A DNA stretch of 64,000 bases from an uncultured bacterium (GCA_965371245.1 CBDUXT010000007.1:12999-76998), one strand, 5' to 3'. Shown: positions 14,342-51,049, counted from the first letter of the stretch. Numbers and translations are program-made. Notes: a model not told the origin generated them from the sequence alone.

Positions 14342-14690
14342 GCGATTCCCCCCGTTGATGGTGTCGCCGGTGAGGCATTGACGAGGAACGCGACGGGCGC
14401 CGATTGTTCTTGACGCAGGGAACCGGTGTGCTACGGTGAGGTTGCGGCTTCTGGCCGCGTGCAAACTACCTATTCCTGCGGCAGGTTCAGGGCGCGGTCT
14501 TGCTTTGTCCTGGCCTGTCTCGGGGATTTTCTCCTGAGCTATCCCCTCCAGCGTGTTGTTAAACCAAACGCCTCCACCATACGATGCTGGCAGAAATGCG
14601 CAAGTGTTTTTTTGCGTACAGGCCGGCATGCAAGCATGCTCGCCAACAAAAAGGCTTGCGCTATTGCTCGTTTCGTGTCATAGCTGGGCC

Positions 14691-28760: not shown

Positions 28761-31700
28761 TCAAGGGTCAATCGTGATTGCTCGACATCCGTCGTTTCCA
28801 GCCGGGCACACATCAGTGCATCCATTGAAGACATCTACACCGGCCTTAAGGTATTGGGTGCCGATTAGTGCCCCACAGTTCATTCCGTACGTAACGGGGA
28901 ACCTCAAAGACTGACCTGGGGCAAGTGAATTCACATTAAACGTGAGTACGAACAAGGGGAATCCCGCGCAGGCACCGTAGTCACCGCAAGCCGAGTTAAG
29001 ACATATTCCGGTTCTCCAACAGCGCGGCTCAGAAGATATGTTGCCCACGTTTGTCACCTGTACGGTCCAAGAAACTGAATTACATATCCTTCCGCGTGAC
29101 GGAGCGTCGAGTATCTCGAACTCCAGATCCCAAATCGGGACGGCGATCGGCAGTTGGACGTTCAGGCAATCGTTGGAGGGCGTGGAATCCAAGAGAAGTG
29201 AGCATGCAGTGACAGTAAACTCGTTCAGCCCTCCGCAAGCACCGGACGAGAGCGGTGTCAGAAGACTTACGAAACCTGTTGCTTCTCCGAAGGCCGGGAC
29301 TTGGACTGTCGTTTCACCGCAATTCCCTTGAATGCACACTCTCGCAGTGGCGGCCGTGCCGGTTGAACCTGAGTTACGGAGTGCCACGCCATAGTTGCGC
29401 GGCCCGATCCCCCCAATGACCCCGCCGGGCAGGATGATACTCGCGACGGATACCTCCGGCGGCAGGTCGAGAGGGCAGCCGGTGGAATCCACGGCAACGT
29501 CCGTGGTTCCGGGACACTGATCCATCTGATCGGGCACGCCGTCGCCATCCCCGTCGAGAACACACCCGACCTGATCAACTATCCCTCCGGTTGTTCCAGG
29601 ACAATCGTCGAGATCATCGTTGACGCCATCTTCGTCGCTGTCCCGTTGATTCGCAGCACAACCGCGGTCGTCAACGGCTAGCAAGGATTCTGTCGCAGGA
29701 CACTCGTCGAGGTCGTCGAAGACTCCGTCGCCGTCCTTGTCGATCCCACGCCCCGGCTCAAACCCCACGGCCACGGGAAGCAAGGCCACGCCCTGCGGAG
29801 ATTGCAGCCCGGTGATCGGTAAGTCCTCAACGTCGGTTCCATCGAGGTCGGCGCGATGGATTTTGTCCGTCAGCGAATCCGCCCAGTAAATCTTGCCACC
29901 CTCAGGATCGATCACAATTCCTTGTGGTGATAGGAGCCCCGAAATTGGCAGCTCCTCAACAGACGTACCATCCAGGTTCGCGCGTCGAATCGCGTCCGCG
30001 CCATTGTCGGTCCAGTAGATCTTCTTGTTAAGTGGGTCCATGGCGATGCCCTGTGGGGAGATGAGGCCGCTGATCGGCAAGTCCTCCGCGTCGGTTCCAT
30101 CGAGGTCGGCGCGCTGGATCTTGTCTGTCAGTGAGTCGATCCAGTAGATCTTGCCACCCGCGGGATCGACCACAATTCCTTGCGGTGACAGCAGCCCGGA
30201 AATCGGCAGCTCCTCAGCAGATGTACCATCCAGGTTCGCGCGCCCAATTGTGTCCGTTCCACTGTCGGTCCAGTAGATCTTCTTGTTAAGTGAGTCCACG
30301 CCGATGCCCCGCGGGGAGATGAGCCCGCTGATCGGTAGGTCCTCAACGCCGCTTCCATCGAGGCCGGCGCGCTGGATTTTGTCCGTCAGCGAGTCGGTCC
30401 AGTAGATCTTGAAACCCACGGGATCGACCGCAATTCCTTGCGGTGATAGGAGTCCAGAAATCGGCAGCTCCTCAACAGATGTACCATCCAGGTTTGCGCG
30501 TCTAATTGTGTCCGTGCCAACGTCGGTCCAGATGATTGATGCCGCCGATGGTGGGGGCGGGGAACTCTCCGCATGGAGAAAACGGATGTTATCCACCCAA
30601 ACGGTACCCGCGCTAAGCCCCGGGTTGAGATCCTTTTCAACCACGAAGGCAATCTCGCCCAATGGATATTGGGAGGACACGGCCACCTCCATCGTATGCA
30701 CGATACCCGGCGGCAAAACCAGTGTATTGGTATCTCGCGTCTCGGCTAGGTTGGTCTTGAGTTCTTTTCTCAGTGTGACCGCGGATGACACTTCCACATC
30801 ACATACTACGCGGTCGCAGGGTTTCACCATAGTAACTTCAGGCTCCAGAACAACCCAAGCGTCGTCTGGCGAGTTGTCCAATGTCCAGCGAAATTCCAGT
30901 CGGCGCTCTCCGTTAGTCGTGAGCACATCCGCCTCGTTACCTTCATTGGTGATCGGTGGCCGGATGGGCTCCTGAAAATCAAAGAGCGTATCGATGACCG
31001 GCGTCCGACACACGCGGATCGGCACCGCGATGTTCAGTTGGAATATGCATAGCGTTTCGCGCAGTGCGCGCGCCATGCTCACGGTGCAAGGTGAGTCTCC
31101 GACCTTGTGAACGATGACGCCATCGACGGAGCATCCATTGCGTGCATTGGAAATGGTCACCTCTTCACCCTCGACCAATCCAAGATCTTCAAACAAGCTT
31201 TGAGCGATCCACACCTCCATCACTCCTGCAGGTTGCCCGGGTGCATTGCAGATCAGTGGTGCACGCGCAAATGTGCCCGCGGCCAGCTCGTCTCCATCCG
31301 GGCTGCCATCAGCGTCGCTGTCTGTACTCTTGGGATCCAGCCCGAACTGCACCTCGAACCCGTCCTCTACACCATCGCCGTCGGTGTCTTTGGATGCCGG
31401 ATCCGTTCGTGAGACGAGTTCTTCGAAGATATCCGAAAGCCCGTCCTCGTCGGTGTCGGGGCCGTCGGGCGTCGGGTCTTCGACCTGGCTCGGGTCCACG
31501 GGAAGGTCCGCGATGATCGGGGCCACCATACCATCCCGACTTCCGTAGAGATCCTGAATCATGCCTATGTCTACCTGCGACAGAACCGCGCGCGCCGCAC
31601 CTCGCGACTCCCGATCGATCGACTCATGCATCACAGCGCCGATGTCGTCGGCATGGACGAGCCCTAGGCTATGTCCCAGCTCGTGAAGGACGAGCGCAAA

Positions 31701-32276
31701 CTGGACATTTTCCTCCGCGGGATCCTGAAGCTGATCGAAGACCTGTACGATCTGCCTGACCGGTTCATCGCCGCTGGGTAGCTCGGCCCAACCCCAGAAT
31801 TCCACGCTATCCTCGCGTAGTGGCTCGCAACAGGGAGGTGATGCGCAAGGCGCGCATAACTCGATCTCAATGTCGGCCGGCTCGTTCGCTCCTGCCTCCC
31901 TGATCTCCAGGGGCACGAGCCTCGCATACGCCTCCGCCGCGTCCATATATAGCGCGCTGAGGGTATTGAGGTCGGCATCTTCTACCGGACCGGTTACCCT
32001 GTATGCGAGTTCACTCTTCGACCACTTGTTTCGAGCCCGCCCCCCCAAGCCGGTTCCGTTTGACGACGTGCGGGGGCCCTTCGGAATCGAATCACTCCTG
32101 ATCGACCCGCCAGGGGAGACGAACGCGCCCGGAGGGATTTCAAAGCAGCTCAACGCCCAGGCCATGACGAAGTTAGCAAGGACCAGTCGTGGCCATGGCC
32201 AGCTACGCCAACGAATGCCTGCCGATCCACTTGCGATCCACACATCCGTACTTTGGGATTGTGTCGGTTCCGACAT
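28761..32276 (-). CDS. Large secreted mosaic protein: zinc metalloprotease (HExxH, matrixin-like) + TSP3-like Ca-binding repeats + six-bladed YWTD beta-propeller + C-terminal Ig-like region
   Basis: LVLHELGHSLGLVHADD (HExxHxxGxxH). Asp-rich DTDEDGLSD, DTDGDGVEDG, DSDADGSPDGD, DKDGDGVFDD, DSDEDGVNDD and DGDGDGVPDQ loops. Six KIYWTD repeats. ORF is open to 32315 and the start is placed at MSEPTQSQ. Confidence 0.85.
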   Translation of the reverse strand: MSEPTQSQSTDVWIASGSAGIRWRSWPWPRLVLANFVMAWALSCFEIPPGAFVSPGGSIRSDSIPKGPRTSSNGTGLGGRARNKWSKSELAYRVTGPVEDADLNTLSALYMDAAEAYARLVPLEIREAGANEPADIEIELCAPCASPPCCEPLREDSVEFWGWAELPSGDEPVRQIVQVFDQLQDPAEENVQFALVLHELGHSLGLVHADDIGAVMHESIDRESRGAARAVLSQVDIGMIQDLYGSRDGMVAPIIADLPVDPSQVEDPTPDGPDTDEDGLSDIFEELVSRTDPASKDTDGDGVEDGFEVQFGLDPKSTDSDADGSPDGDELAAGTFARAPLICNAPGQPAGVMEVWIAQSLFEDLGLVEGEEVTISNARNGCSVDGVIVHKVGDSPCTVSMARALRETLCIFQLNIAVPIRVCRTPVIDTLFDFQEPIRPPITNEGNEADVLTTNGERRLEFRWTLDNSPDDAWVVLEPEVTMVKPCDRVVCDVEVSSAVTLRKELKTNLAETRDTNTLVLPPGIVHTMEVAVSSQYPLGEIAFVVEKDLNPGLSAGTVWVDNIRFLHAESSPPPPSAASIIWTDVGTDTIRRANLDGTSVEELPISGLLSPQGIAVDPVGFKIYWTDSLTDKIQRAGLDGSGVEDLPISGLISPRGIGVDSLNKKIYWTDSGTDTIGRANLDGTSAEELPISGLLSPQGIVVDPAGGKIYWIDSLTDKIQRADLDGTDAEDLPISGLISPQGIAMDPLNKKIYWTDNGADAIRRANLDGTSVEELPISGLLSPQGIVIDPEGGKIYWADSLTDKIHRADLDGTDVEDLPITGLQSPQGVALLPVAVGFEPGRGIDKDGDGVFDDLDECPATESLLAVDDRGCAANQRDSDEDGVNDDLDDCPGTTGGIVDQVGCVLDGDGDGVPDQMDQCPGTTDVAVDSTGCPLDLPPEVSVASIILPGGVIGGIGPRNYGVALRNSGSTGTAATARVCIQGNCGETTVQVPAFGEATGFVSLLTPLSSGACGGLNEFTVTACSLLLDSTPSNDCLNVQLPIAVPIWDLEFEILDAPSRGRICNSVSWTVQVTNVGNISSEPRCWRTGICLNSACGDYGACAGFPLFVLTFNVNSLAPGQSLRFPVTYGMNCGALIGTQYLKAGVDVFNGCTDVCPAGNDGCRAITIDP
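29763..30536 (-). repeat. Six tandem 129-bp YWTD-blade coding repeats organised as three 258-bp A-B units
   Basis: Blades 1, 3 and 5 share G(T/A)D(T/A)I(R/G)RANLDGTS(V/A)EELPISGLLSPQGI. Blades 2, 4 and 6 share LTDKI(Q/H)RA(G/D)LDG(S/T)(G/D)(V/A)EDLPI(S/T)GL(I/Q)SP(R/Q)G(I/V). High nucleotide identity is visible on the plus strand. Confidence 0.9.
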
Positions 32277-32326
32277 TCTCTTTATCCTTTCCCGACAGGG
32301 CCGAATACGCCACAACGGGGCCAGCG

Positions 32327-34715: not shown

Positions 34716-35918
34716 TCAAATCGGCACGTCGTGGGACGCGCTCTCGGACACCGATATCCGCCGCTTGTCGTAGATTTGGGTCGTAGTTACGTGCCGGTGA
34801 CCGAGTAGATCCTGTACTTTCCGGATTTCCACGCCACCTCCGAGCAGCAGCGTTGCCGTCGTAGCCCGAAGGGAATGCGGCGTGTAAATGCACCGCGACA
34901 CTGTCGTCCCGTCGGCCGTGGCCTCTCGCTTCACCGCGCCAGGTAGGCGGCGCAGATATTCCATGATTAGGTGATACATGCCCATGGGATGGAAGTGCCG
35001 CTCGGCCAGCTTGTCGCTGTTCGAGCTGGCCCGCGGTCGGAAGAGCGGCCCACACGTGAGACCGGATCTGTCGATGTACTCGGCGATTGCCTCGGCCGCA
35101 GCGAAGTGCAGGCCAATTGTTCGATGTCTACAGCCCTTTTCGCTCAGCCGGATCGTTGCTTCCTCACCGTCGCGGTGGAAGTCGCTGAGCTTGAGCCGGC
35201 AACCGGCCCCGATTCGCGCCCCCGCGTACAGGTAGAACTTCAGAATCGCACGATCGCGCGCATCGACGAGCGAGTCGCTGGCAGGCATGTTCATCAGCTG
35301 CCGCGCTCGCGTGGCTGGGAGCGCCCTGGTGTCGTGAAGCGGGTCGTTCGATTCCCGACTGATGAACTGTGCGTGGGCCGGATTCGGCACTGTGATCGGC
35401 AAGCGTAGCTCCACCGCTGAGGCCGCCAGGAACTTATAGAAGCTCGACAGCGACGAGATTCGCCGGTTCAAGGTCTTCGGCGCCGCCTGGTGCAAGATCA
35501 GATGTTCCCGGTAGGCCTGAACGTCCTTCACGGACACGGTGTACATTCGCCACGACTCAGCGGGCCAATCGAAGCCCACGAATCTGATGAAGGATTCCAC
35601 GTCCTGCCGGTAGGCGCGTTGCGTGTGCGGACTCCGGCGACGGGCGACCCAGGTTTCGAACAAGCCTGCCACGCAGCTGTAGAACGTCTCAACGCGGTGA
35701 CGTACCTCCGGCGTCACGTGACCGACGAGAACGGGTGGAAGCCCGACCCGGTCGGTCGGGTCTGTGAGCAGGTTGCTGGTATTCGTAATGTCCGTCGTCC
35801 TGTCCACGTGTTCTTGGATGCCCGATGTACCGCACGGCACAGGGCCGTGATTGCACTGAATCGTTGCGGTTTTTCCCTTCTCGCTCGCGCTGCCACTGTT
35901 GATAGAATCTCTTATCAT
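34716..35918 (-). CDS. Tyrosine recombinase / integrase
   Basis: SAM-like N-domain (SPHTQRAYRQDVESFIRFVG). Catalytic-domain motifs ARIGAGCRLKLSDF, GCRHRTIGL, HSLRATTATLLL, LLGHRHVTTTQIYD. ORF is open to 35972. Confidence 0.85.
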   Translation of the reverse strand: MIRDSINSGSASEKGKTATIQCNHGPVPCGTSGIQEHVDRTTDITNTSNLLTDPTDRVGLPPVLVGHVTPEVRHRVETFYSCVAGLFETWVARRRSPHTQRAYRQDVESFIRFVGFDWPAESWRMYTVSVKDVQAYREHLILHQAAPKTLNRRISSLSSFYKFLAASAVELRLPITVPNPAHAQFISRESNDPLHDTRALPATRARQLMNMPASDSLVDARDRAILKFYLYAGARIGAGCRLKLSDFHRDGEEATIRLSEKGCRHRTIGLHFAAAEAIAEYIDRSGLTCGPLFRPRASSNSDKLAERHFHPMGMYHLIMEYLRRLPGAVKREATADGTTVSRCIYTPHSLRATTATLLLGGGVEIRKVQDLLGHRHVTTTQIYDKRRISVSESASHDVPI

Positions 35919-35944
35919 AAGTCGCAGGCCCGGCGCAAGCCGTC

Positions 35945-36274
35945 TTGCGACGGGCCGATTCCCGCATGTCATTCGTCGACTTCCTTGACTTGGAATTCGA
36001 GCACCGCATCGGCCGGCAGCCGTTTCCCCGGCGGCACATGGACTCGGATCCCTTGGACCGGATCGTCAGGAAGTACGCGCGCCGGCTCGGCCTCACCCGT
36101 GGCTACTCGGCCCACTCGATGCGGGCCACGTTCATCGCAACGGCTTTGGAGAACGGCTGCAGCCTGGAGGATGTCCAGCGCGCCGCCGGCCACGCTGACC
36201 CATCGACGACCACGCTCTACGATCGGCGCGGCTATAACCCCGAAAAATCCGCCTCATTTTTCGCCAATTACTGA
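35945..36274 (+). pseudogene. 3' fragment of a second tyrosine recombinase gene (C-terminal ~95 aa only)
   Basis: LDRIVRKYARRLGLTRGYSAHSMRATFIATALENGCSLEDVQRAAGHADPSTTTLYDRR carries box II (HxxR...H...Y) only. No Arg-I or N-terminal domain lies upstream. It abuts the 5' end of the opposite-strand integrase. Confidence 0.7.
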
Positions 36275-36596: not shown

Positions 36597-37640
36597 ATGA
36601 GGTTTATCGATCTTTTTGCAGGGCTGGGCGGTTTTCACCTGGCGCTATCGCGCCTTGGTCACGAGTGCGTCTTTGCATCCGAACTTGATGACCGTCTCCG
36701 CGAATTATATGAGAAGAATTTCGGTATCCGGCCGGCTGGCGATATTCGCACGGTTCAGATAGGCACGATCCCTGCCCACCAGCTTCTTTGTGCGGGATTC
36801 CCATGCCAACCGTTCTCCAAAGCTGGCTCACAGCACGGCAAGAACTGCCCCAAGTGGGGCGATCTCTTCGGCTACGTGCTGAAGATTCTGCGGCACCGCA
36901 AACCTCGTTTTCTCCTTCTCGAAAACGTGCCAAATCTGTCCAAACACAACGATGGGGATACATGGAATTCAATGCGAACGGCTCTCCGCCGCGCTGGTTA
37001 CGACGTCTCCGAGCAAAGGCTCTCACCACACCAGTTTGGAATTCCGCAGGTCCGTGACCGAATCTACATCGCTGGTTCGCGTGCGGGACTCAACGGCTTT
37101 GCTTGGCCTACTGCAACAAGAACGCCCACCTCGATTGTAACGGCGCTCGACGACCAACCTGACGAAGCGCGACCCCTTTCTAGGCAGGTCACAGAGTGCC
37201 TTCGGGTCTGGCAGGCGTTTATCCGAAGCTTTCCCAAGAAGAAAGAACTGCCCTCATTCCCAATCTGGTCGATGGAGTTCGGTGCCACATATCCGTACGC
37301 GCAGCAAACGCCCAATGCTCTCGGCACGCGCGCGCTGTGTGCGTATCACGGCGCCCACGGCGTGCCACTGAATTCTGTGCCACCATCTGAACGGATGCTG
37401 GCGCTTCCGTCCTACGCCCGCACTCGCCAACGTCGTTTTCCGGATTGGAAGATCCAGTTTATTGCCCAGAATCGCGCCCTCTACGATGAGAACAAACATT
37501 GGATCGACAAATGGCTCCCCCGTATACTCCAGTTTCCCCCGAGCCTTCAGAAGCTTGAATGGAACTGCAAGGGTGAAATACGCGACATCTGGAGATACGT
37601 TATTCAGTTTCGCGCTTCTGGCGTTCGGGTGAAGCGGCCG
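36597..37640 (+). pseudogene. dcm: DNA (cytosine-5) methyltransferase, 3'-truncated (motifs IX-X missing)
   Basis: Motif I FIDLFAGLGGF, IV GFPCQPFS, VI LLENVPNL, VIII QVRDRIYIAG, then KLEWN...IQFRASGVRVKRP. After ~37640 the frame continues as a ~100-aa Ala/Pro/Ser/Thr-rich nonsense tail to 37964. Confidence 0.75.
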
Positions 37641-38053
37641 ACGCCCGCACGAACGTCCCTGGCGTCACCAAAAAAGACCGCCCGTTGTCCGCCGAGCACT
37701 TCGCCGAGTTCGAGCATTGCCACGGCACCGACCCCAACGGCCGCTTCGGGCCTGGGAAACGCAAGACGCGCCGCGAATCCGACAGCCCTTCCGGCGACAA
37801 GGGTTGGCTCGGCGGCGACCGCTGGCGCCGCTTCGGCATCGACGAAGTCAAAGCCCGCGACTTCAAACTCGACGGTTTCAAATGGCTCAAGGACGAATCC
37901 CTCGACGACGCGGACAACTTGCCTGAACCGGAGGAGCTTGTCACGGATGCGATCGGCGAGCTAGAAGCAGCGACGGAAGAACTTCAGATGGTCCTAGGCC
38001 TGCTGGAGCAAAGTCAGGCGAACGAGGTGCTGGAAAAGGAGGTGTCAGCTTGA
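37640..38053 (+). pseudogene. hsdM: 3' remnant of type I R-M methylase subunit hsdM (last ~135 codons, no start or catalytic domain)
   Basis: In the +2 frame relative to dcm: DARTNVPGVTKKDRPLSAEHFAEFEHCHG...DRWRRFGIDEVKARDFKLDGFKWLKDESLDDADNLPEPEELVTDAIGEL. This parallels the EcoKI HsdM C-terminus (DMRTNM..., RWRKFSREWI, ISWLKDKDSIDADSLPEPDVLA). Confidence 0.75.
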
Positions 38054-38943
38054 CGTTCTACTCGCGCCGCAATACGCCACCACCGACGGAACTCCTGTAT
38101 GACGTTCCTGATCTGGTCCGCAGCCGGATCGCCGCCATTCTGGAGCATCACGTTGCTCGTGGGCAAGCCGGTGTCATGTTTATGAATAGCCTCGAAGGTC
38201 TACTAACTCGCACGTATGGCGGTCTCGCGGGCCCCGGCTATGAGGCGGCGCGCCAGAGCGACATCCCCGTGATACAGCACTTCTTCTCCTGCACAGATGA
38301 GCAGGCGTTAGACTTCATCGAAGCCTGTTTCAGCTTGAACATGTCTTGTGGCGGGCAGGTGACTATCGACGAGATCAACGCTGTTCTGCGTGAGGAGGGA
38401 ATCGGTTACGAATTGTCGAAGTACCTCGGGCCCGGATTAACTAGCGGTGAGATTCGGATCGGGCAGCCTATTCCTGAGGACCAGCTACCGCGAGTCATCA
38501 GAGTTGATAGCCAAGCGATCCACGCCGAGGTGGTCGCGCCGGCGCTTGGGCTTCTATCGAACCCCATCTTCGGGGTCGCCAATACCGAAATGCTCAAGGC
38601 ACACGGCGATCATCGCGCCGGGCAAGACGAAGATGCCATTACCGCCTGCTGCTCAGCCTTTGAGAGCGTGCTGAAGACGATCTGTGACCAGAAAGGGTGG
38701 ACCTTCGACGCGGACAAAGACACCTGCGCGACGCTCGTTGATACCTGTTACAAGGAAGGCTTGTTCGCCTCGTTCTATTTGGAGCTTTTCAAGCGTGTCG
38801 GCACGATCCGCAACAAGCTGGGCGACGCGCACGGCCGCGGGCCGACGCCGCTTCACGATGTGGAAGCCGCCCATGCGGAACACATGCTCTACATGGTCTC
38901 GACCCACATTATCCTCTTGTGCAAACTAGCGGGGCTTGAATGA
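38050..38943 (+). CDS. AbiJ-like protein with C-terminal Abi_C/HEPN-type motif (297 aa)
   Basis: TTG start overlaps the hsdM stop (TTGA). The C-terminal helix pair contains R-x6-H, IRNKLGDAHG (38809-38832), as in the Abi_C (HEPN clan) pattern lRN..g.aHG. The N-terminal YDVPDLVRSRIAAIL resembles AbiJ N-domains. Confidence 0.5.
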   Translation: MTFYSRRNTPPPTELLYDVPDLVRSRIAAILEHHVARGQAGVMFMNSLEGLLTRTYGGLAGPGYEAARQSDIPVIQHFFSCTDEQALDFIEACFSLNMSCGGQVTIDEINAVLREEGIGYELSKYLGPGLTSGEIRIGQPIPEDQLPRVIRVDSQAIHAEVVAPALGLLSNPIFGVANTEMLKAHGDHRAGQDEDAITACCSAFESVLKTICDQKGWTFDADKDTCATLVDTCYKEGLFASFYLELFKRVGTIRNKLGDAHGRGPTPLHDVEAAHAEHMLYMVSTHIILLCKLAGLE

Positions 38944-40475
38944 CTTCGGTCTCGCTCAATTCAACGACCCTGAACGCGGACATCGACGAATTGCCAGAGG
39001 GGTGGACGGTTGCCTCGCTCGGCAGAGTGACGCAAGTCGTCTCGAACATCAAACCGGCGAAGGAGCCCAACCGGGTCTTCCGATACGTGGACATTGGGGC
39101 GGTCGACAACGGCACTAACCGGATCGCTGGGACTAGGAACGTCCAAGGCAAAGATGCACCGTCGCGTGCTCGCAGACCAATTCGCCCAAACGATGTCTTG
39201 TTCTCGAATGTTCGTACGTACTTGCGCAACATGGCCTTGGTTACTGAGGTCGATCACGCGGACGTCTGTTCTACCGGGTTTACGGTGTTGCGGTCGAACG
39301 GTGCAGCCCTACCTAGCTTTCTGTTCTGCGCGGCTTTGCGAGATAGCTTTATCGATGCAGTTACGAAGACTCAAACTGGGACCCACTACCCGGCGACTAG
39401 CGAGGCCAAGGTTCGTGCTGCGTCAATCCCACTGCCGCCGCTTTCCGAGCAGGTGAGGATCGTCGAGGCGATCGAACGCTTGACGGCTCGCGTTGATTCA
39501 GCTCGTCAGCGACTTGGCAACGTCCCCAAGATCCTGAAACGCTTCCGCGAAACTATCCTCGCCGCAGCCTGTACCGGACGACTCACCGAAGCCTGGAGAG
39601 AGGGGCACGCTGGCACTCGAAGTGCCGTCGAGCAGCTCGCGGAGTTTGAGTCCGCACATGCTCGACTGCGTAGCTCCAGCGCCGGAACCCGCGCTGCAAA
39701 GGCGGAGGCCACACTCGAGCTCGATGGACTACCTGATCTGCCATCAACATGGTGCTACCGAAGCGCGGACTCGATCGTCGATCCAGCTACGGTTATCTCA
39801 TACGGCATCGTGCTTCCCGGCCCCGAAGTGGAACGTGGCATTCCGTACGTCCGACAGCAGGATGTCATCGATGGCACCGTTCTCGTCGACCAACTCCGTC
39901 GCACCACACCTGAGATCGCGGCGAAACATCAGCGGTCAACACTTGTGACCGGGGATGTTCTCCTGTGCATCATCCGTCACCTTCGAGTTGCGATCGTTCC
40001 ACCTGGGATCGATGGAGCGAATCTCACGCAGGGTACCGTTCGACTCCGCCCTGCTCGGGTTGCCTCCGGACCGTATCTCGCCATGTACCTCGGCGGTATC
40101 CACGCCCAGAACTGGATGCGACAGCGCCACTTTGGCATGTCCATGCCTCGCATCAATGTGAGGGATGCACGCGCGCTCCCGGTCGCGGTTCCACCTGTCC
40201 AAGAGCAAGCTGAAATCGTCCAGCGCGTTCAGTCGTTGATGAAACTCGCGAACGCCATCGAGCGTCGCGTTGTCGCCGCAACTGCACGGGCGGACAAAAT
40301 CACCCAGGCAGTGCTGGCCAAAGCCTTTCGCGGCGAACTCGTTCCCACCGAAGCCGAGCTTGCCCGCGCCGAAGGCCGCCGCTACGAATCCGCGGTCGAC
40401 CTGCTTGCTCGTATCAATTCGCGTGTTGAATCTGTTCCAAAGGTTCGGCGGCGCAAACAAAGGACAAGTCGTTGA
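38940..40475 (+). CDS. hsdS: Type I restriction-modification specificity subunit HsdS (two target-recognition domains)
   Basis: LPEGWTVASLGRV...NDVLFSNVRTYL...STGFTVLR...IPLPPLSEQVRIVEAIERL, then a second half LPDLPSTW...GDVLLCIIR...VAVPPVQEQAEIVQRVQSLM...LAKAFRGELVP. ATGA overlap with the upstream gene. Confidence 0.85.
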   Translation: MTSVSLNSTTLNADIDELPEGWTVASLGRVTQVVSNIKPAKEPNRVFRYVDIGAVDNGTNRIAGTRNVQGKDAPSRARRPIRPNDVLFSNVRTYLRNMALVTEVDHADVCSTGFTVLRSNGAALPSFLFCAALRDSFIDAVTKTQTGTHYPATSEAKVRAASIPLPPLSEQVRIVEAIERLTARVDSARQRLGNVPKILKRFRETILAAACTGRLTEAWREGHAGTRSAVEQLAEFESAHARLRSSSAGTRAAKAEATLELDGLPDLPSTWCYRSADSIVDPATVISYGIVLPGPEVERGIPYVRQQDVIDGTVLVDQLRRTTPEIAAKHQRSTLVTGDVLLCIIRHLRVAIVPPGIDGANLTQGTVRLRPARVASGPYLAMYLGGIHAQNWMRQRHFGMSMPRINVRDARALPVAVPPVQEQAEIVQRVQSLMKLANAIERRVVAATARADKITQAVLAKAFRGELVPTEAELARAEGRRYESAVDLLARINSRVESVPKVRRRKQRTSR

Positions 40476-43141
40476 GTGACGTTGAAGCCAATCAAAGCCA
40501 AGAAGCATCTCCTGATGTGGAGGGCTCGCTAGACGTTGTCCAGTGGAGTCGGCAACTGCCGATTTGGATGCACGATGCGCTCCGCCGACTCTACCAGCAT
40601 GGAATATTGACCTCCAAAGATGATGACGAACTCCTTTCGATCTGCGCAACCGCCAACGGCGTAGAGCTTGAATCTGTGCCCAAAGTAGACCCAATTCCAC
40701 TCGATCCGGCGCACGTACCTGACGATAGACAGGTCGAGAATCCGGTCGCGCTGGTCGAACTTCGTGATTTGCTCCATGTGAACGCCGTCGCACCTGATCA
40801 GAAACTCGCATTTGCTCAGTCGGGTCTGACGATTATCTACGGTGATAACGGTTCAGGTAAATCAGGTTATGTACGTTTACTAAAGCGTGCGTGCCGGGCC
40901 CGGCACCGCGAAGGCTCGCTACTGCCGAACGTATACGCCGACCCGCCAACCAGCCCGGCCAGCGCTAAGCTCAAGTACTCCATCAATCAACAGAACCATA
41001 ACCATGATTGGGTCGATGGTAGCGACTCAACACCCTCGGAACTCTCGCGCATAAGCGTGTTTGATTCACGCTGCGCTGAAACCCACGTCACAGGCAAGAA
41101 TGAGTTGGCCTACACTCCGCGCGCGCTAGCAGTTCTGTCGGAGCTGGCGAAAGCCGCTCAAAGGATGAAGGCCAAGCTGCAGCAATTGCAGAGGCAACTA
41201 GAAGCAGAGCGACCACCCTGGATGACCACGATGCCGAAGCCGTTTCGTGATACGACGGCCGTCGGCAAACTTATTGGCGGGTTATCCGCCGATACCACAA
41301 TCGAATCTGTCGACGGGCTCGCGCGATTAACAAGCGCCGAGGAACTCCGCCTCAATCAACTCAAAACGGACTTGGGCGAGCTGCCTTTCCGCACGGTGCA
41401 AAGGCTGCGTGGCACGGTCCAGCGATTGGACTCTGCGATCAATCTCGTTGAAACAGCAGTTCGGGCTCTTTCGGATGAGAGTGTCTCGACTTTCCGTAAG
41501 CAGCTTGAGGAACTTACGGTGAAGCGCGACGCCGCACGCATTGCGGCAGACGTGAGAGCAGGCGACTACCCACTGTTAGGTGTCGGATCTGGGAGTTGGA
41601 AATCACTCTGGGAGGCCGCCCGCAAGTATTCTGAATCTGACGCGTATGCTGATCAGCCTTTTCCTGTCACGGTGGAGAATGCTAGATGTGTGCTTTGCCA
41701 ACAAGAGCTGGATTCGACCGCTAGCGACCGGCTGACTCGCTTTGAGGCATTCGTTAAGAATGAGACGCAAGTACAATTCGAGGCCGCGACGCGCTCAGTT
41801 GATGCTGGCCGAAGCACGTTTCGCGACCTCCAGTTGATTCCAGGTGAGATTCGCGCTGCGCGCGACGTTGTCCGGACAGAACTTGATCAGCGGAACCTTG
41901 CGACAGTATTACGACGCTATCTGATGCGAGCGCTCCGAATCCTATCGACTATCCTAAAAACCGAAGCGGCCGCTGATCTCGATACACTGCGTCAGCTTGG
42001 CGTCTCACCGCTTGATGAATTGCGTTTGGTACGCGATAACCTCAACACTCGAATCGCCGAGCTATCATCCGCGACAAACTCCGACTCACAGCGCCAGCTT
42101 GAAACCGAACGCGATGAACTGGAGGACCGTCTGTGGCTCAGGTCGTCGCGTCAGTTGGTTCTTCGTGAAATGCGCCGGCTTGTCAAGTTGTCGATGATCA
42201 AGTCGGCACTTGACGATACGAGCACGAACCGCGTCACACGGCACGCGACGCGGCTTGCAGCCGAAGTGGTTACCGCGAAGCTCCGGGATTGCTTCGCGCG
42301 CGAAGTCGAAAAGCTCGGAATCGGAAGTCTGCGTGCTGAAATGTCGCAACTCGGAGGAATGACGGGAGATTCGATATTCGGAATCACATTGATACGCAGC
42401 CGAAGCACAAGCGTGGCCGACGTGTTCAGTGAAGGAGAATTCCGATGCATCGCCCTTGCCGCGTTCCTGGCCGAACTTGCTACCGCCGACGATCAATCTG
42501 GGATCGTATTTGACGATCCGGTTTCTTCACTCGATCACAATCACCGTGAAGCCGTCGCGAAGCGATTGGCTGAGGAGGCGTCAAATCGGCAAGTAATCGT
42601 TTTTACGCACGACATCGTTTTCTTGTGCGAATTGGATGAGGCTGCGCGAGAGCAAGGCTTCGATCCAAAGTACCAATGCATCACACGAGGGGACGAGGCT
42701 GCGGGCTTCGCAACCTCGGAAATACCTCATAACAAACAACCGCCTCAAAGTGCTCTTTCAGGGATCGAGACACACCTCGATAACACCAAGCGACAGTACG
42801 AAACGGGACAGCAGGCCGAGTGGACAAGGACTGCCAAGTCGATCGCCGGTCAGATTCGTGACTGCTGGGAACTCGCCGCCGAACATGCGCTCAAGCCGGT
42901 GATGTCTCGGTTTTCGCACAAGACGGCACCATCCAGATTCAACGCTGTGTCCGTTTTGGACGCTTCGGATTCCACGGAGATGAAAGAAGGATATGCGTGC
43001 TGCTCCGGATGGGCGCACACCTCTGGCCCTGCGGCCCAGGCCGCTCCCGCTACGCCCGCAGAGCTTCAGGCGGAAATCAACCGCCTCAAGCACTGGCTGG
43101 AGGCTATCGAACTAAAGCAAGCAGGGCTGCGATCAACTTAG
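40472..43141 (+). CDS. Rad50/ABC-type ATPase with coiled-coil CxxC hook (AAA_13 / RloC-like, possible anticodon nuclease), 889 aa
   Basis: Walker A GDNGSGKSG (40841-64). ~500-aa helical insert with CVLC (41687-98) near its midpoint. Signature-like FSEGEFRCIALAAFL, Walker B/D-loop GIVFDDPVSSLD, H-loop VIVFTHD. The C-terminal domain has IRDCWE (R-x3-E, 42857-71) and a downstream GWAHTSG. TTGA overlap with hsdS. Confidence 0.55.
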   Translation: MSDVEANQSQEASPDVEGSLDVVQWSRQLPIWMHDALRRLYQHGILTSKDDDELLSICATANGVELESVPKVDPIPLDPAHVPDDRQVENPVALVELRDLLHVNAVAPDQKLAFAQSGLTIIYGDNGSGKSGYVRLLKRACRARHREGSLLPNVYADPPTSPASAKLKYSINQQNHNHDWVDGSDSTPSELSRISVFDSRCAETHVTGKNELAYTPRALAVLSELAKAAQRMKAKLQQLQRQLEAERPPWMTTMPKPFRDTTAVGKLIGGLSADTTIESVDGLARLTSAEELRLNQLKTDLGELPFRTVQRLRGTVQRLDSAINLVETAVRALSDESVSTFRKQLEELTVKRDAARIAADVRAGDYPLLGVGSGSWKSLWEAARKYSESDAYADQPFPVTVENARCVLCQQELDSTASDRLTRFEAFVKNETQVQFEAATRSVDAGRSTFRDLQLIPGEIRAARDVVRTELDQRNLATVLRRYLMRALRILSTILKTEAAADLDTLRQLGVSPLDELRLVRDNLNTRIAELSSATNSDSQRQLETERDELEDRLWLRSSRQLVLREMRRLVKLSMIKSALDDTSTNRVTRHATRLAAEVVTAKLRDCFAREVEKLGIGSLRAEMSQLGGMTGDSIFGITLIRSRSTSVADVFSEGEFRCIALAAFLAELATADDQSGIVFDDPVSSLDHNHREAVAKRLAEEASNRQVIVFTHDIVFLCELDEAAREQGFDPKYQCITRGDEAAGFATSEIPHNKQPPQSALSGIETHLDNTKRQYETGQQAEWTRTAKSIAGQIRDCWELAAEHALKPVMSRFSHKTAPSRFNAVSVLDASDSTEMKEGYACCSGWAHTSGPAAQAAPATPAELQAEINRLKHWLEAIELKQAGLRST

Positions 43142-43161: not shown

Positions 43162-43947
43162 CTACTCAAAGACTCGAACAATCCGGCGTTTCCAGGGAAC
43201 GTTTCCGACGGGAACCAGTTCATTACCTGCAACACGGCGCGCGCGGTTGACGGCCCGCCACACATTGAGAAGCTGGACCCGAATCGGTGCATACGGCTGA
43301 AATTCTATGGCCGCAAAATCAGCTCCGACCACTGCTGCCGAGCGGTAACACGCTCGGTCAAGAAACCACTCCTTCAGCCGCAAATACTCAGCCCGCTCGA
43401 TTCGCACACAAGCGTGTCCGTTGCGGTAGCTGAGGCCGTAACCTGCGAACTTTATCGGAACGCGACGAGCGTCGCGTATTCGGCGAGTTTCTTCGTCAAA
43501 GTAACGGTGGCCCCCGTGCGTGGCCATCAGCAGGAAACACCGCTCGTTCCGGATGTACTGTATGTTGGCCAAGCCGGCGCGCTTGCGACGGGCGCGCTCC
43601 CATCGTGACACGTCGATGCCGTATTTCTTGATGAGCTTGGCGTCCACCACGGCCGGATCCTTCCTCTCTGGAATCCGTCCGGCCACGTAGAACCAATAGC
43701 CATGCCGTAGGTATTGTACGGCAACTTGCTGCACGAATCCTTCGACGGACGTAGCCACGCATCGGTACTCAACTCGCTTCTTTCCCACGCTCTTCTCTCG
43801 TAATTCTGGCGGCCGAACCGGACCCCATACCGGGACGCCGTCGGGAATAGATTGCACCGTATGCACACGGCTCCTCCCCGGCCACCAATTGCACACCGAA
43901 CAACTTGGGATTGTTTGTCGGCACAATCCCGAAAGCCATCGAACCAT
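43162..43947 (-). CDS. Hypothetical protein (conserved-looking, function unknown)
   Basis: ORF is open to 44016 and the start is placed at the internal MVRWLSG to avoid overlap with the upstream gene. The protein-like core is VQYLRHGYWFYVAGRIPERKDPAVVDAKLIKKYGIDVSRWERARRKRAGLANIQYIRNERCFLLMATHG. No family was recognised. Confidence 0.4.
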   Translation of the reverse strand: MVRWLSGLCRQTIPSCSVCNWWPGRSRVHTVQSIPDGVPVWGPVRPPELREKSVGKKRVEYRCVATSVEGFVQQVAVQYLRHGYWFYVAGRIPERKDPAVVDAKLIKKYGIDVSRWERARRKRAGLANIQYIRNERCFLLMATHGGHRYFDEETRRIRDARRVPIKFAGYGLSYRNGHACVRIERAEYLRLKEWFLDRACYRSAAVVGADFAAIEFQPYAPIRVQLLNVWRAVNRARRVAGNELVPVGNVPWKRRIVRVFE

Positions 43948-43978
43948 GTTGGTGCACGACCAACCTTCAACAATTGAC

Positions 43979-44188
43979 TCAGCCGCAGAAGCCAAGCAGC
44001 GCGCGCAGGTCATCATCCGTCGGCGGGCGACCGATGCCTTCGGTGTAGAGCGCCACGAGGCGTTCCCTCACCTTCCAGGGCAGATCGTCCGGTTCAACGA
44101 GGACGAGTCCCGTAGCCTGCAACTGCTCGACGTAGTCTGCGGCCGGGTCACCAATTACGGCGCCGTTTGCCGTTTTCCACCAACCCAT
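43979..44188 (-). CDS. Small acidic hypothetical protein (69 aa)
   Basis: GGAGGA 6 nt upstream of ATG 44188. MGWWKTANGAVIGDPAADYVEQLQATGLVLVEPDDLPWKVRERLVALYTEGIGRPPTDDDLRALLGFCG. Confidence 0.55.
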   Translation of the reverse strand: MGWWKTANGAVIGDPAADYVEQLQATGLVLVEPDDLPWKVRERLVALYTEGIGRPPTDDDLRALLGFCG

Positions 44189-45459
44189 GTTTATCCTCCG
44201 TCGTACACTCGAAACCTCCCTTCGATTCACGATTACCAGCGTGCTTCGCGCAGCGAACCGGGCGCGGCCACACTTGTTTCCAAGTTGACCGCGCCCAGTA
44301 ATAAGAAGCAGCGCGAAGCACCACTCGATCAACCGCCATGCACCACGTACACGTCGGCTATCAACGTCAGATCATCGCCACAGGCCGCTCGCGCTCCCGC
44401 GCGAGTCGCATGTGACCACGTAACCACCTCGTCAAAGGACCGATGCGGACCGATTCCGCACCGGCACACCGTACAAATGGAATACCCGTCAGCCCTTTCG
44501 TTGTTGTCACGCATCCGGCACCACCCGGACGCACAAACGGCCCGCCACTGCCTTGCAGCGGAATCCGCTCCCGATTCATCGGGACTTCTACTTGGGCCAC
44601 ACTCCCACTCTGCAGCGTTTGAATCACGCGGCTAACCAAGCCGCGCACCGGGCACCAGGCCGGCGGCTGCAGAGCTTCCCGGATTATCAGCAGTTGTTCA
44701 CCAATCAGTCACGTCGCTAGGCCGTGTTACCGGCCGGGTCTACGTCGTATGTCCGCGCTTCCGCAACGGCATAGTTTCCCCGCCATCGGCGGGATTTCAG
44801 CGGGCAGAAACAAGAAGCTCCCGCTTACCCGTCAACGTAGATTCTTCGCGGTTCGGCACCGTCTCTGATTGATGTGACCAGCAAGCCCTTACGGGCCTTT
44901 CATGGTTGAGCTTTTCGCGGTCCGCTGTTTGGGCGGATCCCCGGACGAGTCAGGTCCGGTCGCGCGTGTCGCCACGCTGCGAGCTCCCCACGCTGGCCAA
45001 GGTTGAACAAGCCTCCGAGACTTTCACCCGATTTGCGCACTGCAACGGTGAGCTTCGGCTCGAACCCCCTGGATAGGATTTGTCGTACACGACAAGACGC
45101 ACCTACTTCAACTGCTGCGACCTCGGCGATCCGCGTAACACCACGGCTCGTCGAGGCGCGTCTCCGTCGCCCCGATTCAAAATGTCAATTCGCTATCGGA
45201 TAGAACTGCAGGATTACTTCCTTTTTCGGAGATTAGTCTGCAGAGCCTCCGTCGAGCCGGACAAGCGCGTCTCCACGCATCCGGCTCTACGGGTAGCATC
45301 GTTGCGACTGGTGAGGTCGCACTCTTAGCCCGGCTGGTGAAGCCAGGTTTACCGAGTGATGCCGCCCATTTGTACGTTGTCACGGTTACGTGTTGACGTT
45401 CGTGACGAACACGAGGTCTTCGCCTCGTTCAAGGAACCTAGCGTACTCGCCAGCCAAAG

Positions 45460-46980: not shown

Positions 46981-47403
46981 ATGCGTACAAGACTGAAGGA
47001 GACCCTGGTGGCCCGAGCGAGCCGATCCAATCAACAAGAACCCATCGGCGACGTGCTCCGGGCGCGCCGCATCGAGGAGCTGCACAAAGGCCTCCGCGAG
47101 ATGGCCAGGATTCTCGAGATTGCGCCGGCTCATCTGACTGACCTGGAGAAGGGTCGTCGCACCCCGTCAGAAGACCTGCTCTTACGCATTGCCCAGGCGT
47201 ACGGCATCGCTGAACCCGAGCTCCGCGCCGGCTGGAGCCGAGCTGAAGGCATCGTAAGCGAAGTCGCGACCCAAGACCCTCTTACCGCGGAAAAGGTCCC
47301 GGAGTTCCTGCGTACCGCGCGCAAGCTATCACAAGATCAGTGGGACAAACTCATCAGCGAAGCCCGTCGTATGTCGGCCAAGAAGGGGCGTCGCAAGGAT
47401 TGA
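46981..47403 (+). CDS. XRE-family helix-turn-helix regulator
   Basis: IGDVLRARRIEELHKGLREMARILEIAPAHLTDLEKGRRTPSEDLLLRIAQAYGI is the canonical Cro/C1 HTH pattern. Confidence 0.75.
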   Translation: MRTRLKETLVARASRSNQQEPIGDVLRARRIEELHKGLREMARILEIAPAHLTDLEKGRRTPSEDLLLRIAQAYGIAEPELRAGWSRAEGIVSEVATQDPLTAEKVPEFLRTARKLSQDQWDKLISEARRMSAKKGRRKD

Positions 47404-47406
47404 GGT

Positions 47407-48177
47407 TTGATGCCAGCAGCGCAGCCAGCCAAGTTGCTTGAACCACGCCGTGGCGGTCGGCAGACCGACCAGCGCGCCTGGTCCACGCTTGAGCGTTGTC
47501 GCACGAGGCTGGGTCTTGAGGGACTCCCGTTGCCGATACCGGTCGAAGAGTGGATCGAAGGCCCCCTTGGTATTCAATTCGGGTTCTCCGATCTCAGCCA
47601 CCTCGGTGACGGTGTTCTCGGCGCTGCGTTTGTCGATAGCCCCCAAATCCTGATCGACGAGAAGGCGCTGGAGCACGAAGGGCGGTGCCGTTTCACGTGT
47701 GCCCACGAACTCGGTCACCTGGTCATGCACAAACGCATCCGAGCGCGTTTCCATGGCACAACAGCCGGTGTCACGTTCTCAACGAACAAGTACGAGCGCC
47801 AGGCCGATCGTTTCGCCGCGGCGTTCCTGATGCCATTGCCACAGCTTGAGCGGGCGATCGTGCGCTCTTTCGACGATCGCCGCCTGGAACGGGTGCCCTG
47901 CACGCACGAGTTGAAGCAGGTTACTGCGGAGTCTGAGTGGCTTTGGCGTTACCGGGTTCTTCCGGCCATCACACGCACCTTCAATGTGTCGCTATCGGCG
48001 GCAGTATTCCGATGCACCGAAATCCAGTTACGGATCACGAACCCGCAGCCGTTGATGCCGAGGCGGTTGGTTCAAAGGCTGTTGGAACCGGCCGAACCCA
48101 ACGATACCGTCAGCGCAGTCCAAGTCATCGACGGTCGTCCCCAGTACCGCGAAACCCTGACGGGCGAGGCGTCATGA
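47407..48177 (+). CDS. ImmA/IrrE-family zinc metallopeptidase (DUF955-like)
   Basis: HEXXH in RFTCAHELGHLVMH, with downstream E...ADRFAAAFLMP typical of ImmA/IrrE. Starts 4 nt after the XRE gene. Confidence 0.75.
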   Translation: MMPAAQPAKLLEPRRGGRQTDQRAWSTLERCRTRLGLEGLPLPIPVEEWIEGPLGIQFGFSDLSHLGDGVLGAAFVDSPQILIDEKALEHEGRCRFTCAHELGHLVMHKRIRARFHGTTAGVTFSTNKYERQADRFAAAFLMPLPQLERAIVRSFDDRRLERVPCTHELKQVTAESEWLWRYRVLPAITRTFNVSLSAAVFRCTEIQLRITNPQPLMPRRLVQRLLEPAEPNDTVSAVQVIDGRPQYRETLTGEAS

Positions 48178-49309: not shown

Positions 49310-50620
49310 ATGGCGAGAAAGGAGGAACGATCTCACCGTTGGACGAAGTCAGAACGCGTCGGCGAGGTTACGCTCTTTCTTACACCGCGTAGTCCATACT
49401 GGCAAATGTACTGGGAGATCGAGGTGCCAGCGCCCAACGGCCAAGCTGGTCGGGCGGCATCACCTCGTCAGGCGGTTTCAAAGAGCACTCGCGAAACAGA
49501 TCTCGCGTTCGCCCGGCTCGTTGCCGGCCGCAGGAGTGAGGAGCTCTTTCGGGGGCGGCACTATCCGGAGGAGCGGCAGGCGCCGCAGCAAACGCGGATC
49601 GGCCCGGTGTTCGATGCATTCATCGCGTACATCGAAACGTTGGATCGCAGCCACGACTACGTTTCGAAGCTCAAGGGAAGACTGAAGTGCCTGATAGGCT
49701 GGATGGAGAAGCGACGGTTGGTCTTTGTGCAAGACATTAGCGCGAGCTTGTTGCAGAGGTTCCAGACGTATCTGCGGACCGAACGAGGTGTCACGACGTC
49801 GACAGCGAATCATTATCTCGACGCCGTGCACAATTTCTGCGGCTACGCCATCTTCAAGCGCAAGCTCATGGCCGGCCCGAACCCGGCGGCCACAGGGCGC
49901 CAAGCTGAATTGGATCGGCTCCCGCGCCGCACGCTTCCGCCACCGACCATTTATCCGGATCAGGTCAACGCCGTGATCGAGGCGGCCGCAAACCACTTTG
50001 ATACGCAGATTGTGAACCTCATCGTGTTCATCTGCGAAGGTGGCTTTCGATTTCAGGAGCTCCAGTTTCTTCAGGTCGGCGACATCGACCTCAAGGAGCG
50101 CGAGATCATCCTGGACATCAAGCGGCCTGAACCCGGCCGGGTTCGCCCGGAGCTGCGCAGGCGATGCCTGACGGCCGAGGGACTATGGGTTCCCAAGAGT
50201 CGTGCCGCCCGCCGTCCGGTGCATATCACCGACCGGCTGGCACGAACGATCGGGTCCATGGGACTCGGGCAGGCAACTGATTGGGTGTTTCTCAATCAGG
50301 CGGGAAACCAGATCGCCGGCAACAAGACCCTTGACCACCTCAAGCGATACGCGCTTGAAGCGGACGTGTTGGTGGAACCGCATCCGAAGACGGGTGAGCC
50401 TTGGTCTTTGCTTCGATGGCACTGGCTTAGGCACTACCATCGAACTCGTGCCCACGTCAGCAAGATCCGACGCGAGGTGTCAAAGCTCGCGATGGGTCAT
50501 GCGGCCGACCCCGTCCATGACCACTACCGTGGCTTGGACCGGTTTGCGTTTCACGCGGAGTACGCCAAGTTCGAGAGTGGGCTCGATGACGCGCTTCTGA
50601 CCACGAAAAAGGCGCCTTAA
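49310..50620 (+). CDS. int: Tyrosine recombinase / phage-type integrase adjacent to ssrA
   Basis: GGAGGTG upstream. Catalytic motifs GGFRFQELQFLQVGDI, WVPKSRAARRPVHI, WHWLRHYHRTRA, LAMGHAADPVHDHY. The stop lies 77 nt from the tmRNA 3' end. Confidence 0.9.
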   Translation: MARKEERSHRWTKSERVGEVTLFLTPRSPYWQMYWEIEVPAPNGQAGRAASPRQAVSKSTRETDLAFARLVAGRRSEELFRGRHYPEERQAPQQTRIGPVFDAFIAYIETLDRSHDYVSKLKGRLKCLIGWMEKRRLVFVQDISASLLQRFQTYLRTERGVTTSTANHYLDAVHNFCGYAIFKRKLMAGPNPAATGRQAELDRLPRRTLPPPTIYPDQVNAVIEAAANHFDTQIVNLIVFICEGGFRFQELQFLQVGDIDLKEREIILDIKRPEPGRVRPELRRRCLTAEGLWVPKSRAARRPVHITDRLARTIGSMGLGQATDWVFLNQAGNQIAGNKTLDHLKRYALEADVLVEPHPKTGEPWSLLRWHWLRHYHRTRAHVSKIRREVSKLAMGHAADPVHDHYRGLDRFAFHAEYAKFESGLDDALLTTKKAP

Positions 50621-50650: not shown

Positions 50651-50697
50651 ACCTTTTTTCGTGCTTGTAACCCTTTGTCTGACAACGAGTTAGTAAC

Positions 50698-51049
50698 TGG
50701 AGGCGGGGGGAATCGAACCCCCGTCCCGCGACGGCTCCGGTGGTGCCTCTACGTGCGTAGTCGGTCGTTTGAATCTCGGAAGCGCCGGCGCCGGCCGACA
50801 GGCTCTGGTGCTTCCCAGTCCGACTGTGAGTTCGCCCACGCGCGGTCAGGCGTCACGCGCGGGCTAGCCCGCTTATCGGCGTCTTACGGATTAGCGAGCG
50901 TCATCCGATCGACGGGCTACCTATCTCTAGGCGGCCATGGCAAATGAAGAGTTGCCATTTCTAGTTGCGCCAGGTGTTTAACGAGGCCTCCTGACAACCT
51001 CGGCACGCCACACTACCTTTGACTCGCCCGGTCGAATCCAATCGCCCCC
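50698..51049 (-). ncRNA. ssrA: tmRNA (transfer-messenger RNA, one-piece)
   Basis: On the minus strand the 5' end is GGGGGCGATTGGATTCGACCGGG and the 3' end is GGACGGGGGTTCGATTCCCCCCGCCTCCA (T-arm + acceptor). The acceptor stem GGGGGCG/CGCCUCC has the G3:U pair. The internal tag ORF GCA ACT AGA AAT GGC AAC TCT TCA TTT GCC ATG GCC GCC TAG gives (A)TRNGNSSFAMAA*. Confidence 0.92.

Follow-up and report, generated by a model that had tools for sequence, protein, structure and literature searches.

We analysed a 64,000-nucleotide (nt) stretch of DNA from an uncultured bacterium (GCA_965371245.1 CBDUXT010000007.1:12999-76998), in the following called the window, with a focus on one open reading frame (ORF) that encodes an RloC-like ATP-binding cassette (ABC) ATPase. 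The ORF spans positions 40472-43141 on the plus strand, is uninterrupted and encodes 889 amino acids (aa). Its start codon is TTG, which overlaps by 4 nt (TTGA) with the stop codon of the upstream gene hsdS, the specificity subunit of a type I restriction-modification (R-M) system; the sequence AAGGA lies 7 nt upstream of the start. The overlap of stop and start suggests that hsdS and the ATPase gene are translationally coupled. For comparison, 13 of 70 RloC ORFs were counted with GUG and one with UUG as the start codon (PMC2610378).

The translation contains the Walker A motif GDNGSGKSG (residues 124-132), the ABC signature SEGE (residues 653-656), the Walker B motif and D-loop FDDPVSSLD (residues 680-688) and the H-loop FTHD (residues 711-714). 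Between Walker A and the signature we found the CxxC motif CVLC (residues 406-409, nt 41687-41698). The C-terminal part includes IRDCWE (residues 795-800), which contains R-x3-E and is followed by histidines at positions 805, 816 and 849. Thus, the ORF and every motif listed in a preliminary description of this DNA are present at the positions given there.

To arrange these motifs in a structure, we predicted the whole protein with AlphaFold2 from an alignment of 68 homologues (mean predicted local distance difference test, pLDDT, 84.6). All parts lie on the plus strand. The model begins with a three-helix domain (residues 14-61, nt 40511-40654; helices 14-28, 31-43 and 48-61, pLDDT >90) that carries the conserved residues W25, W32 and D35-L40; the N-terminal 123 residues matched no Pfam family at E up to 10. 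It is followed by the N-lobe of the ABC ATPase (residues 92-207, nt 40745-41092), in which Walker A (G124-G132) lies at nt 40841-40867. An ascending helical arm (residues 217-391, nt 41120-41644; delimited by DSSP helices of the model) leads to an apical loop (residues 392-414, nt 41645-41713) with the candidate zinc hook C406-V-L-C409, and a descending helical arm leads back (residues 415-614, nt 41714-42313). The C-lobe (residues 622-727, nt 42335-42652) contains SEGE (nt 42428-42439), FDDPVSSLD (nt 42509-42535) and FTHD (nt 42602-42613). After a beta-hairpin (residues 733-748), the protein ends with an all-alpha C-terminal domain, the tail (residues 758-887, nt 42743-43132), which is the putative effector. 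Conserved residues of the tail are R796-x3-E800 (nt 42857-42871), E804, R813, D833, S845, H849 (nt 43016-43018) and W875.

The loop that bears the CxxC motif is non-helical and has a lower confidence in the model. As it is flanked by arms of 175 and 200 residues, CxxC lies near the midpoint of the helical insert, and the predicted arm lengths are compatible with an antiparallel coiled coil. When the whole model was compared to the PDB with Foldseek, the best matches were heads with coiled coils from SMC, Rad50, RecN and JetC proteins (best E=3e-9). Pfam detected SMC_N as well as AAA_13; for the latter, residues 404-777 align to positions 256-619 of the 713-position profile. NCBIfam and a sequence search of the PDB yielded generic ABC matches only, including weak NCBIfam matches to RecF and Rad50, and Pfam found four chance-level matches in the segment of the helical insert (467 aa; E >= 0.026). 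We conclude that the protein is a Rad50/SMC-type ABC ATPase whose head is split by a helical insert of ~400 residues. The preliminary description had proposed a Rad50-like ATPase with a CxxC hook in the middle of its coiled coil, and this architectural call was right; its analogy to RloC is also in line with the literature.

Next, we assessed the conservation of these residues. Homologues were collected at E <= 1e-5 (1299 proteins). Adding the query to an alignment of 70 diverse full-length representatives gave 71 sequences with 27-65% identity (median 33%). Both cysteines of the hook (C406 and C409), K130, S653, D681, D682 and H713 of the ATPase and H849 of the tail are conserved in 71/71 sequences. 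Near-invariant residues of the tail are W799 (70/71), E800 and R813 (69/71 each), R796 (68/71), D833 (67/71) and S845 (65/71). All family-invariant residues are intact in the window protein. The bare pattern R-x3-E-x36-52-H is unspecific and occurs three times even within this single protein; thus, only the conservation of R-x3-E...H carries weight. Three histidines had been put forward as partners of R-x3-E. Conservation retains R796, E800 and the most distant histidine, H849 (at +53), whereas H805 and H816 are not conserved across the 71 relatives and were rejected as catalytic residues. The tail motif thus reads R796-x3-E800-x48-H849, with S845. That its spacing differs from the triad of PrrC (R320/E324/H356; PMC2610378) had been noted as a reservation; the spacing is indeed 48 here and 31 in PrrC, whereas 48 falls within the range described for RloC.

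The ORF matches the PADLOC hidden Markov model (HMM) PDLC04891 of the family PDC-S06 over its full length (E=4.8e-184), with residues 21-880 aligned to positions 6-854 of the 858-position profile. In the literature that we examined, PDC-S06 has the status of a prediction, that is, a candidate single-gene defence system. RloC has been defined by the ABC motifs, CXXC and R-x3-E-x36-52-H, often with a Ser before the His, and for the Geobacillus protein the triad R692/E696/H737 was validated by mutagenesis (PMC2610378). Judged by its translation, the window protein belongs under this operational motif definition from 2008, as x48 is within x36-52 and S845 is conserved.

To relate the family to the RloC orthologues that were listed in 2008, we recovered two of them from PLSDB, entry 31 and entry 60. 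Entry 31, from (Para)burkholderia phymatum STM815, was identified via its neighbouring genes, which encode a ligase, a diguanylate cyclase and a helicase-like protein. It is a full-length match to our family HMM (644 bits), in which R782-x3-E786, R801, D820, S832 and H836 are aligned to their counterparts in the window protein. Thus, the subfamily of ~870 aa to which our protein belongs was already counted as RloC in 2008. The same entry was flagged with 'Poor ACNase triad?' in the 2008 table, ACNase being anticodon nuclease (PMC2610378). Entry 60 was recovered by gene size and flanking genes; it is encoded on plasmid 1 of Shewanella sp. ANA-3, has 746 aa and is taken here as a classical RloC. 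This protein matches a different PDC-S06 HMM (E=2.9e-266), so that the PDC-S06 label covers both the ~870-aa subfamily and the one classical RloC tested. Relatives of the ANA-3 tail are named 'wobble nucleotide-excising tRNase' by JGI, whereas members of the ~870-aa subfamily are called 'energy-coupling factor transporter ATP-binding protein EcfA2' (JGI/IMG) or 'AAA family ATPase' (NCBI). The subfamily is thus systematically under-annotated compared to fragments of classical RloC. Its distribution is sporadic; of about 185,000 species genomes, 422 matched two conserved motifs of the family. Since both PADLOC and the RloC table of 2008 already include the family, only two of its features are moderately new, the N-terminal extension and the tail, which is uncharacterised.

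RloC of Geobacillus kaustophilus and Acinetobacter baylyi is a wobble-nucleotide-excising, Zn-responsive anticodon nuclease (PMC2610378). Like the window protein, it consists of an ABC head, an insert of ~400-500 aa that is helical and has CxxC at its centre, and a tail of ~130-150 aa with R-x3-E...S..H. Both are covered by PDC-S06 and both occur only occasionally in type I R-M loci. The window protein is ~90-140 aa longer, and it contains the additional N-terminal three-helix domain (~90 aa), such that Walker A begins at residue 124 compared to residue 32 (32-38) in ANA-3. Our comparison at the sequence level covered one classical orthologue, ANA-3. With a score of 38 bits, the family HMM aligns this protein from the hook, whose context is nearly identical (RCVLCQQ here and RCPFCQQ in ANA-3), along the descending arm and on to the signature, Walker B and H-loop, and the C-lobe profiles of the two groups align with an hhalign probability of 96.9%. 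By these alignments, the region from the hook to the head is homologous to the classical RloC orthologue. This supports the earlier reading of CVLC as an apical hook of the RloC kind.

Based on the architecture, the motif and the family assignment, we suggest that the window protein is an RloC-like abortive-infection or defence protein that acts as a single polypeptide and carries a tRNA-cutting tail. We assign this reading a probability of roughly 0.6. By analogy to RloC (PMC2610378, PMC3458546, PMC3874168), the CxxC motif would pair two protomers via a shared Zn2+, that is, dimerisation would depend on zinc. The ATPase head would sense a DNA-related signal, which might come from DNA breaks, from foreign DNA or from an R-M complex in a particular state, and ATP binding or hydrolysis together with the hook would gate the C-terminal domain. 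In RloC, mutants of the hook are hyperactive. This domain would be a metal-independent RNase that uses R796, E800 and H849 to cut the anticodon loops of tRNAs, and would thereby shut down translation in infected cells. Since the type I R-M partner in cis has decayed (see below), the protein would act autonomously here, as apparently most of its relatives do. If so, the window protein would be a further example of a widespread suicide switch that consists of a single protein and connects sensing at the DNA level with the shut-off of translation. The find opens no long-standing question; the invariant or near-invariant Arg, Glu and His of the uncharacterised tail offer a clean mutational test.

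The nuclease function of the tail would follow from motif, position and analogy, and several observations weigh against it. For the ~870-aa subfamily, activity is predicted by analogy to RloC, for which it has been demonstrated. Homology of the tail to a nuclease of the PrrC/RloC type, which had been proposed, was not detected. When the tail profile was compared to the RloC C-terminal profile, hhalign returned a probability of 0.1%, where the shallow RloC profile (Neff, the effective number of sequences, about 3.5-3.8) leaves room for distant homology. A greedy alignment anchored on the ABC lobes places R796 opposite R651 and H849 opposite H693 with a Sum_probs of 89.3, which is within the shuffled null (80.4 +/- 9.4 for column-shuffled and 80.7 +/- 7.6 for block-shuffled profiles); having failed this control, the match of Arg on Arg and His on His was discarded as evidence. 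In the window protein, AAA_13 ends at profile position 619 of 713 and does not cover the tail, whereas it covers ANA-3 RloC end to end (positions 1-713). Similarly, the PADLOC PrrC HMM matches residues 670-719, i.e. only the signature/Walker B region, whereas it extends into the nuclease region of ANA-3 RloC. In a separate AlphaFold2 model of residues 750-889 (pLDDT 89; predicted template modelling score 0.84), the tail had no significant fold match in the PDB or BFVD, where only generic helical bundles were retrieved, and its profile matched nothing significant among PDB sequences. The arginine of the HEPN motif Rx4-6H is also not conserved: position 843 (x5 before H849) is R or K in 47/71 relatives and Cys in the window protein. 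Lastly, an R...E pair at i and i+4 on a helix could be structural.

Further searches with the tail were consistent with a domain that is confined to this subfamily. The isolated tail matched no Pfam family and no PADLOC PrrC model at E up to 10, and its PADLOC matches were limited to the two PDC-S06 models of its own family. Among 1.84 billion representatives that were searched, we found the tail (208 clusters) only at the end of ~870-aa proteins or fragments thereof. The preliminary description had named two outcomes that would tell against a nuclease, a tail from a non-nuclease family and an R-x3-E that varies among homologues. R-x3-E proved to be conserved, and none of the searches assigned the tail to a non-nuclease family. 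Cleavage of tRNA by the window protein is pure inference from the RloC analogy.

Known nucleases fused to ABC ATPases both resemble and differ from the window protein. PrrC, the tRNA-Lys anticodon nuclease of the E. coli EcoprrI locus, likewise consists of an ABC NTPase followed by a tail with R-x3-E...H, and the ATPase gene of the window lies directly after hsdS in a former type I R-M operon, as does prrC. However, PrrC has ~400 aa and lacks a coiled-coil or zinc-hook insert, whereas the window protein has 889 aa including the ~400-aa insert. Furthermore, PrrC is always found in an intact, silencing R-M locus (hsdM-hsdS-prrC-hsdR), whereas hsdM is truncated and hsdR is missing here. HEPN RNases fused to ABC ATPases (the PrrC/RloC/APECO1_4465 and ERFG_01251 groups; PMC3710099) resemble the window protein, whose tail is predicted to be all-alpha, by a helical domain after the ABC ATPase, by a context of R-M systems or mobile islands and by an invariant His. 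Apart from the unconserved arginine, they differ in that we found no significant sequence or fold match to HEPN entries; seven HEPN structures are among the non-significant fold matches of the tail, all with E >= 0.29.

The results for the head and the tail can also be read in a different way. The ~870-aa subfamily might be a distinct lineage that kept the sensor of RloC and swapped the effector for an unclassified all-alpha domain, with R796/E800/R813/D833/S845/H849 as its conserved residues, and that additionally acquired the N-terminal three-helix domain. We regard this as a tentative proposal. If it were true, chemistry or target would differ from those of RloC and PrrC: the tail might have another RNA target, or its output might not be that of a nuclease and instead be coupled to variable partners, for instance AbiJ-like or HipA-like toxins.

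The main rival explanation, which we consider rather unlikely, leaves the tail without any catalytic role. Here, the protein would be a sensor or regulator ATPase like LmuB, AriA or PtuA, whose helical tail docks or gates a partner toxin, an AbiJ-like protein in the window and a HipA-like protein elsewhere. The lack of detectable nuclease homology of the tail in profile, Pfam and fold searches fits this explanation, as do weak PADLOC matches of the protein to LmuB, AriA and mad3. In addition, an AbiJ-like gene (AbiJ_NTD4 + DUF7014/Abi_C; NCBIfam STM4504/CBY_0614 family) is located at 38050-38943 on the plus strand, in the same operon as the ATPase gene. A homologue that is 86% identical (P0002 in locus L006) is encoded in a cassette hsdM - abiJ-like - hsdS - ATPase, where the AbiJ-like gene has the same position and 66% identity to that of the window.

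The neighbourhoods of more distant relatives are varied. We examined 80 genome loci (L012-L091) that encode relatives of 37-43% identity. A conserved module on the same strand, consisting of a helix-turn-helix (HTH) gene, a HipA_C kinase-like gene and a gene for a protein of ~374 aa, lies directly upstream of the ATPase gene in 26/80 loci, one of which is L014. The same module is found in L004 (6242-8938), where its ~374-aa protein has no Pfam match on record, and a HipA_C gene lies just downstream of the ATPase gene in L002. However, no partner is universal: the HipA module is present in a third of the loci and the AbiJ-like gene in 0/80, and we therefore rejected the AbiJ-like gene as an obligate partner. 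PADLOC moreover models the family as a single-gene system. The invariant His and the near-invariant Arg, Glu, Arg, Asp and Ser of the tail, compared across its relatives, also resemble the pattern of a catalytic site more than that of a docking surface.

The same survey bears on the association with R-M systems, which had been mentioned for the rlo genes. A type I hsdM gene was detected within 10 kb in 3/80 loci. Linkage is thus the exception among relatives, and the one in the window is to a decayed system. The rare linkage matches the description of RloC, where 8/72 orthologues are in type I or III R-M loci (PMC2610378). Relatives in L001 and L002 are encoded directly after hsdS in complete type I loci, whereas those in L004, L005 and L008 have unrelated neighbourhoods of the defence type. 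Such varying neighbours suggest a self-contained effector.

The state of the local R-M locus raises the question whether the ATPase gene is a decaying passenger, that is, an intact-looking and silent remnant of a type I R-M/RloC cassette that was disrupted by the loss of hsdM and hsdR. Upstream of the AbiJ-like gene, we found an hsdM remnant that comprises only the last 136 codons (37640-38047, plus strand) and is 75% identical to the intact hsdM of L006. The stretch that is homologous to L006 starts at nt 37640, equivalent to hsdM codon 360, and ends at the stop codon of the ATPase gene; since it stops exactly there, everything downstream of the ATPase gene is different cargo. At 36597-38047, there is a gene-fusion scar, in which the ORF of a dcm-like C5-cytosine DNA methyltransferase continues into the hsdM remnant in a different reading frame. 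This methyltransferase ORF is 3'-truncated: motifs I, IV (PCQ), VI (ENV) and VIII (QVRDR) are present, motifs IX and X are missing, and homology ends near aa 349. No hsdR was found in the 64-kb window. From these reading frames, the type I R-M system is decayed, with the methyltransferase core and hsdR lost. Deletion chimeras also occur among relatives in metagenomes, where the N-terminus of the 374-aa protein is fused to the tail of the ATPase (P0151 and P0259).

Nevertheless, the 889-codon ORF is uninterrupted with all its invariant residues in place, and hsdS (38940-40475, plus strand) and the AbiJ-like gene are intact as well. The intact reading frames of the AbiJ-like gene, hsdS and the ATPase gene overlap end to end, each starting on the preceding stop, which suggests translational coupling. 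Most relatives, furthermore, apparently function without R-M in cis. We thus consider a passenger improbable and retain the RloC-like defence protein as the preferred explanation.

A tyrosine integrase gene (34716-35972, minus strand; Phage_integrase and a SAM-like N domain), the second of the window, lies just upstream of the truncated methyltransferase gene. Possibly, this integrase gene is part of the element that destroyed hsdM and hsdR, either by inserting or by recombining. Convergent with the ATPase gene is an ORF of 284 aa (43162-44016, minus strand) that has no match in Pfam, NCBIfam or PADLOC.

On a larger scale, the ATPase segment is part of a mobile defence island with R-M and abortive-infection genes. 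A tmRNA gene is located at 50695-51049 on the minus strand (Rfam, 148 bits; the tag predicted by ARAGORN, GLARA*, is odd), and another tyrosine integrase gene lies at its 3' end (49310-50620), which suggests an island integrated at ssrA that contains the ATPase gene. We searched the rest of the window for a direct repeat (at least 12 nt) of the 3' end of the tmRNA gene and found none. The G+C content is 0.56-0.57 over the ATPase gene compared to about 0.61 in the flanks.

This context, together with the sporadic distribution, the varying neighbourhoods and the full-length match to the defence-candidate family PDC-S06, led us to reject as highly improbable that the protein is a housekeeping ATPase for DNA repair or chromosome maintenance of the Rad50/SbcC/SMC/RecN type, with no role in defence, even though SMC, Rad50, RecN and JetC heads are its best structural matches and NCBIfam points weakly to RecF and Rad50. 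The window protein does share with Rad50/SbcC/SMC proteins, including JetC and LmuB, the split ABC head and, as in the Rad50 zinc hook, a CxxC in the apical loop; it differs by far shorter arms and the added C-terminal domain, and no Mre11/SbcD-like or kleisin partner was detected among the neighbouring ORFs that were scanned with Pfam (28.7-53.2 kb).

Further observations concern the remainder of the island and of the window. An HTH_3 (Xre-type) gene followed by a Peptidase_M78 (ImmA/IrrE-like) gene is found at 46981-48177 on the plus strand. The same pair and an integrase follow the ATPase homologue in L001, a locus from a metagenome-assembled genome of the Phycisphaerales; thus, the island of the window and that of L001 share a backbone. 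At 45195-45289 on the minus strand, Rfam detected a group II intron (RF00029; 45.8 bits at a gathering score of 40), with no intact reverse-transcriptase ORF noted nearby; the match is probably an intron remnant. At a comparable place, the syntenic island of L001 has a short RVT_1 ORF. ARAGORN further predicted a 'tRNA-???' with a four-base anticodon (tcaa) at 13145-13233 on the plus strand, which overlaps with a long ORF (12953-14629, minus strand) and is probably a false positive. Lastly, an ORF of 1184 aa (28761-32315, minus strand) combines six LDL-receptor class B (YWTD) repeats, signals of an SGL/arylesterase lactonase-type beta-propeller and a matrixin (Peptidase_M10) segment, a combination that is unusual for a bacterium.

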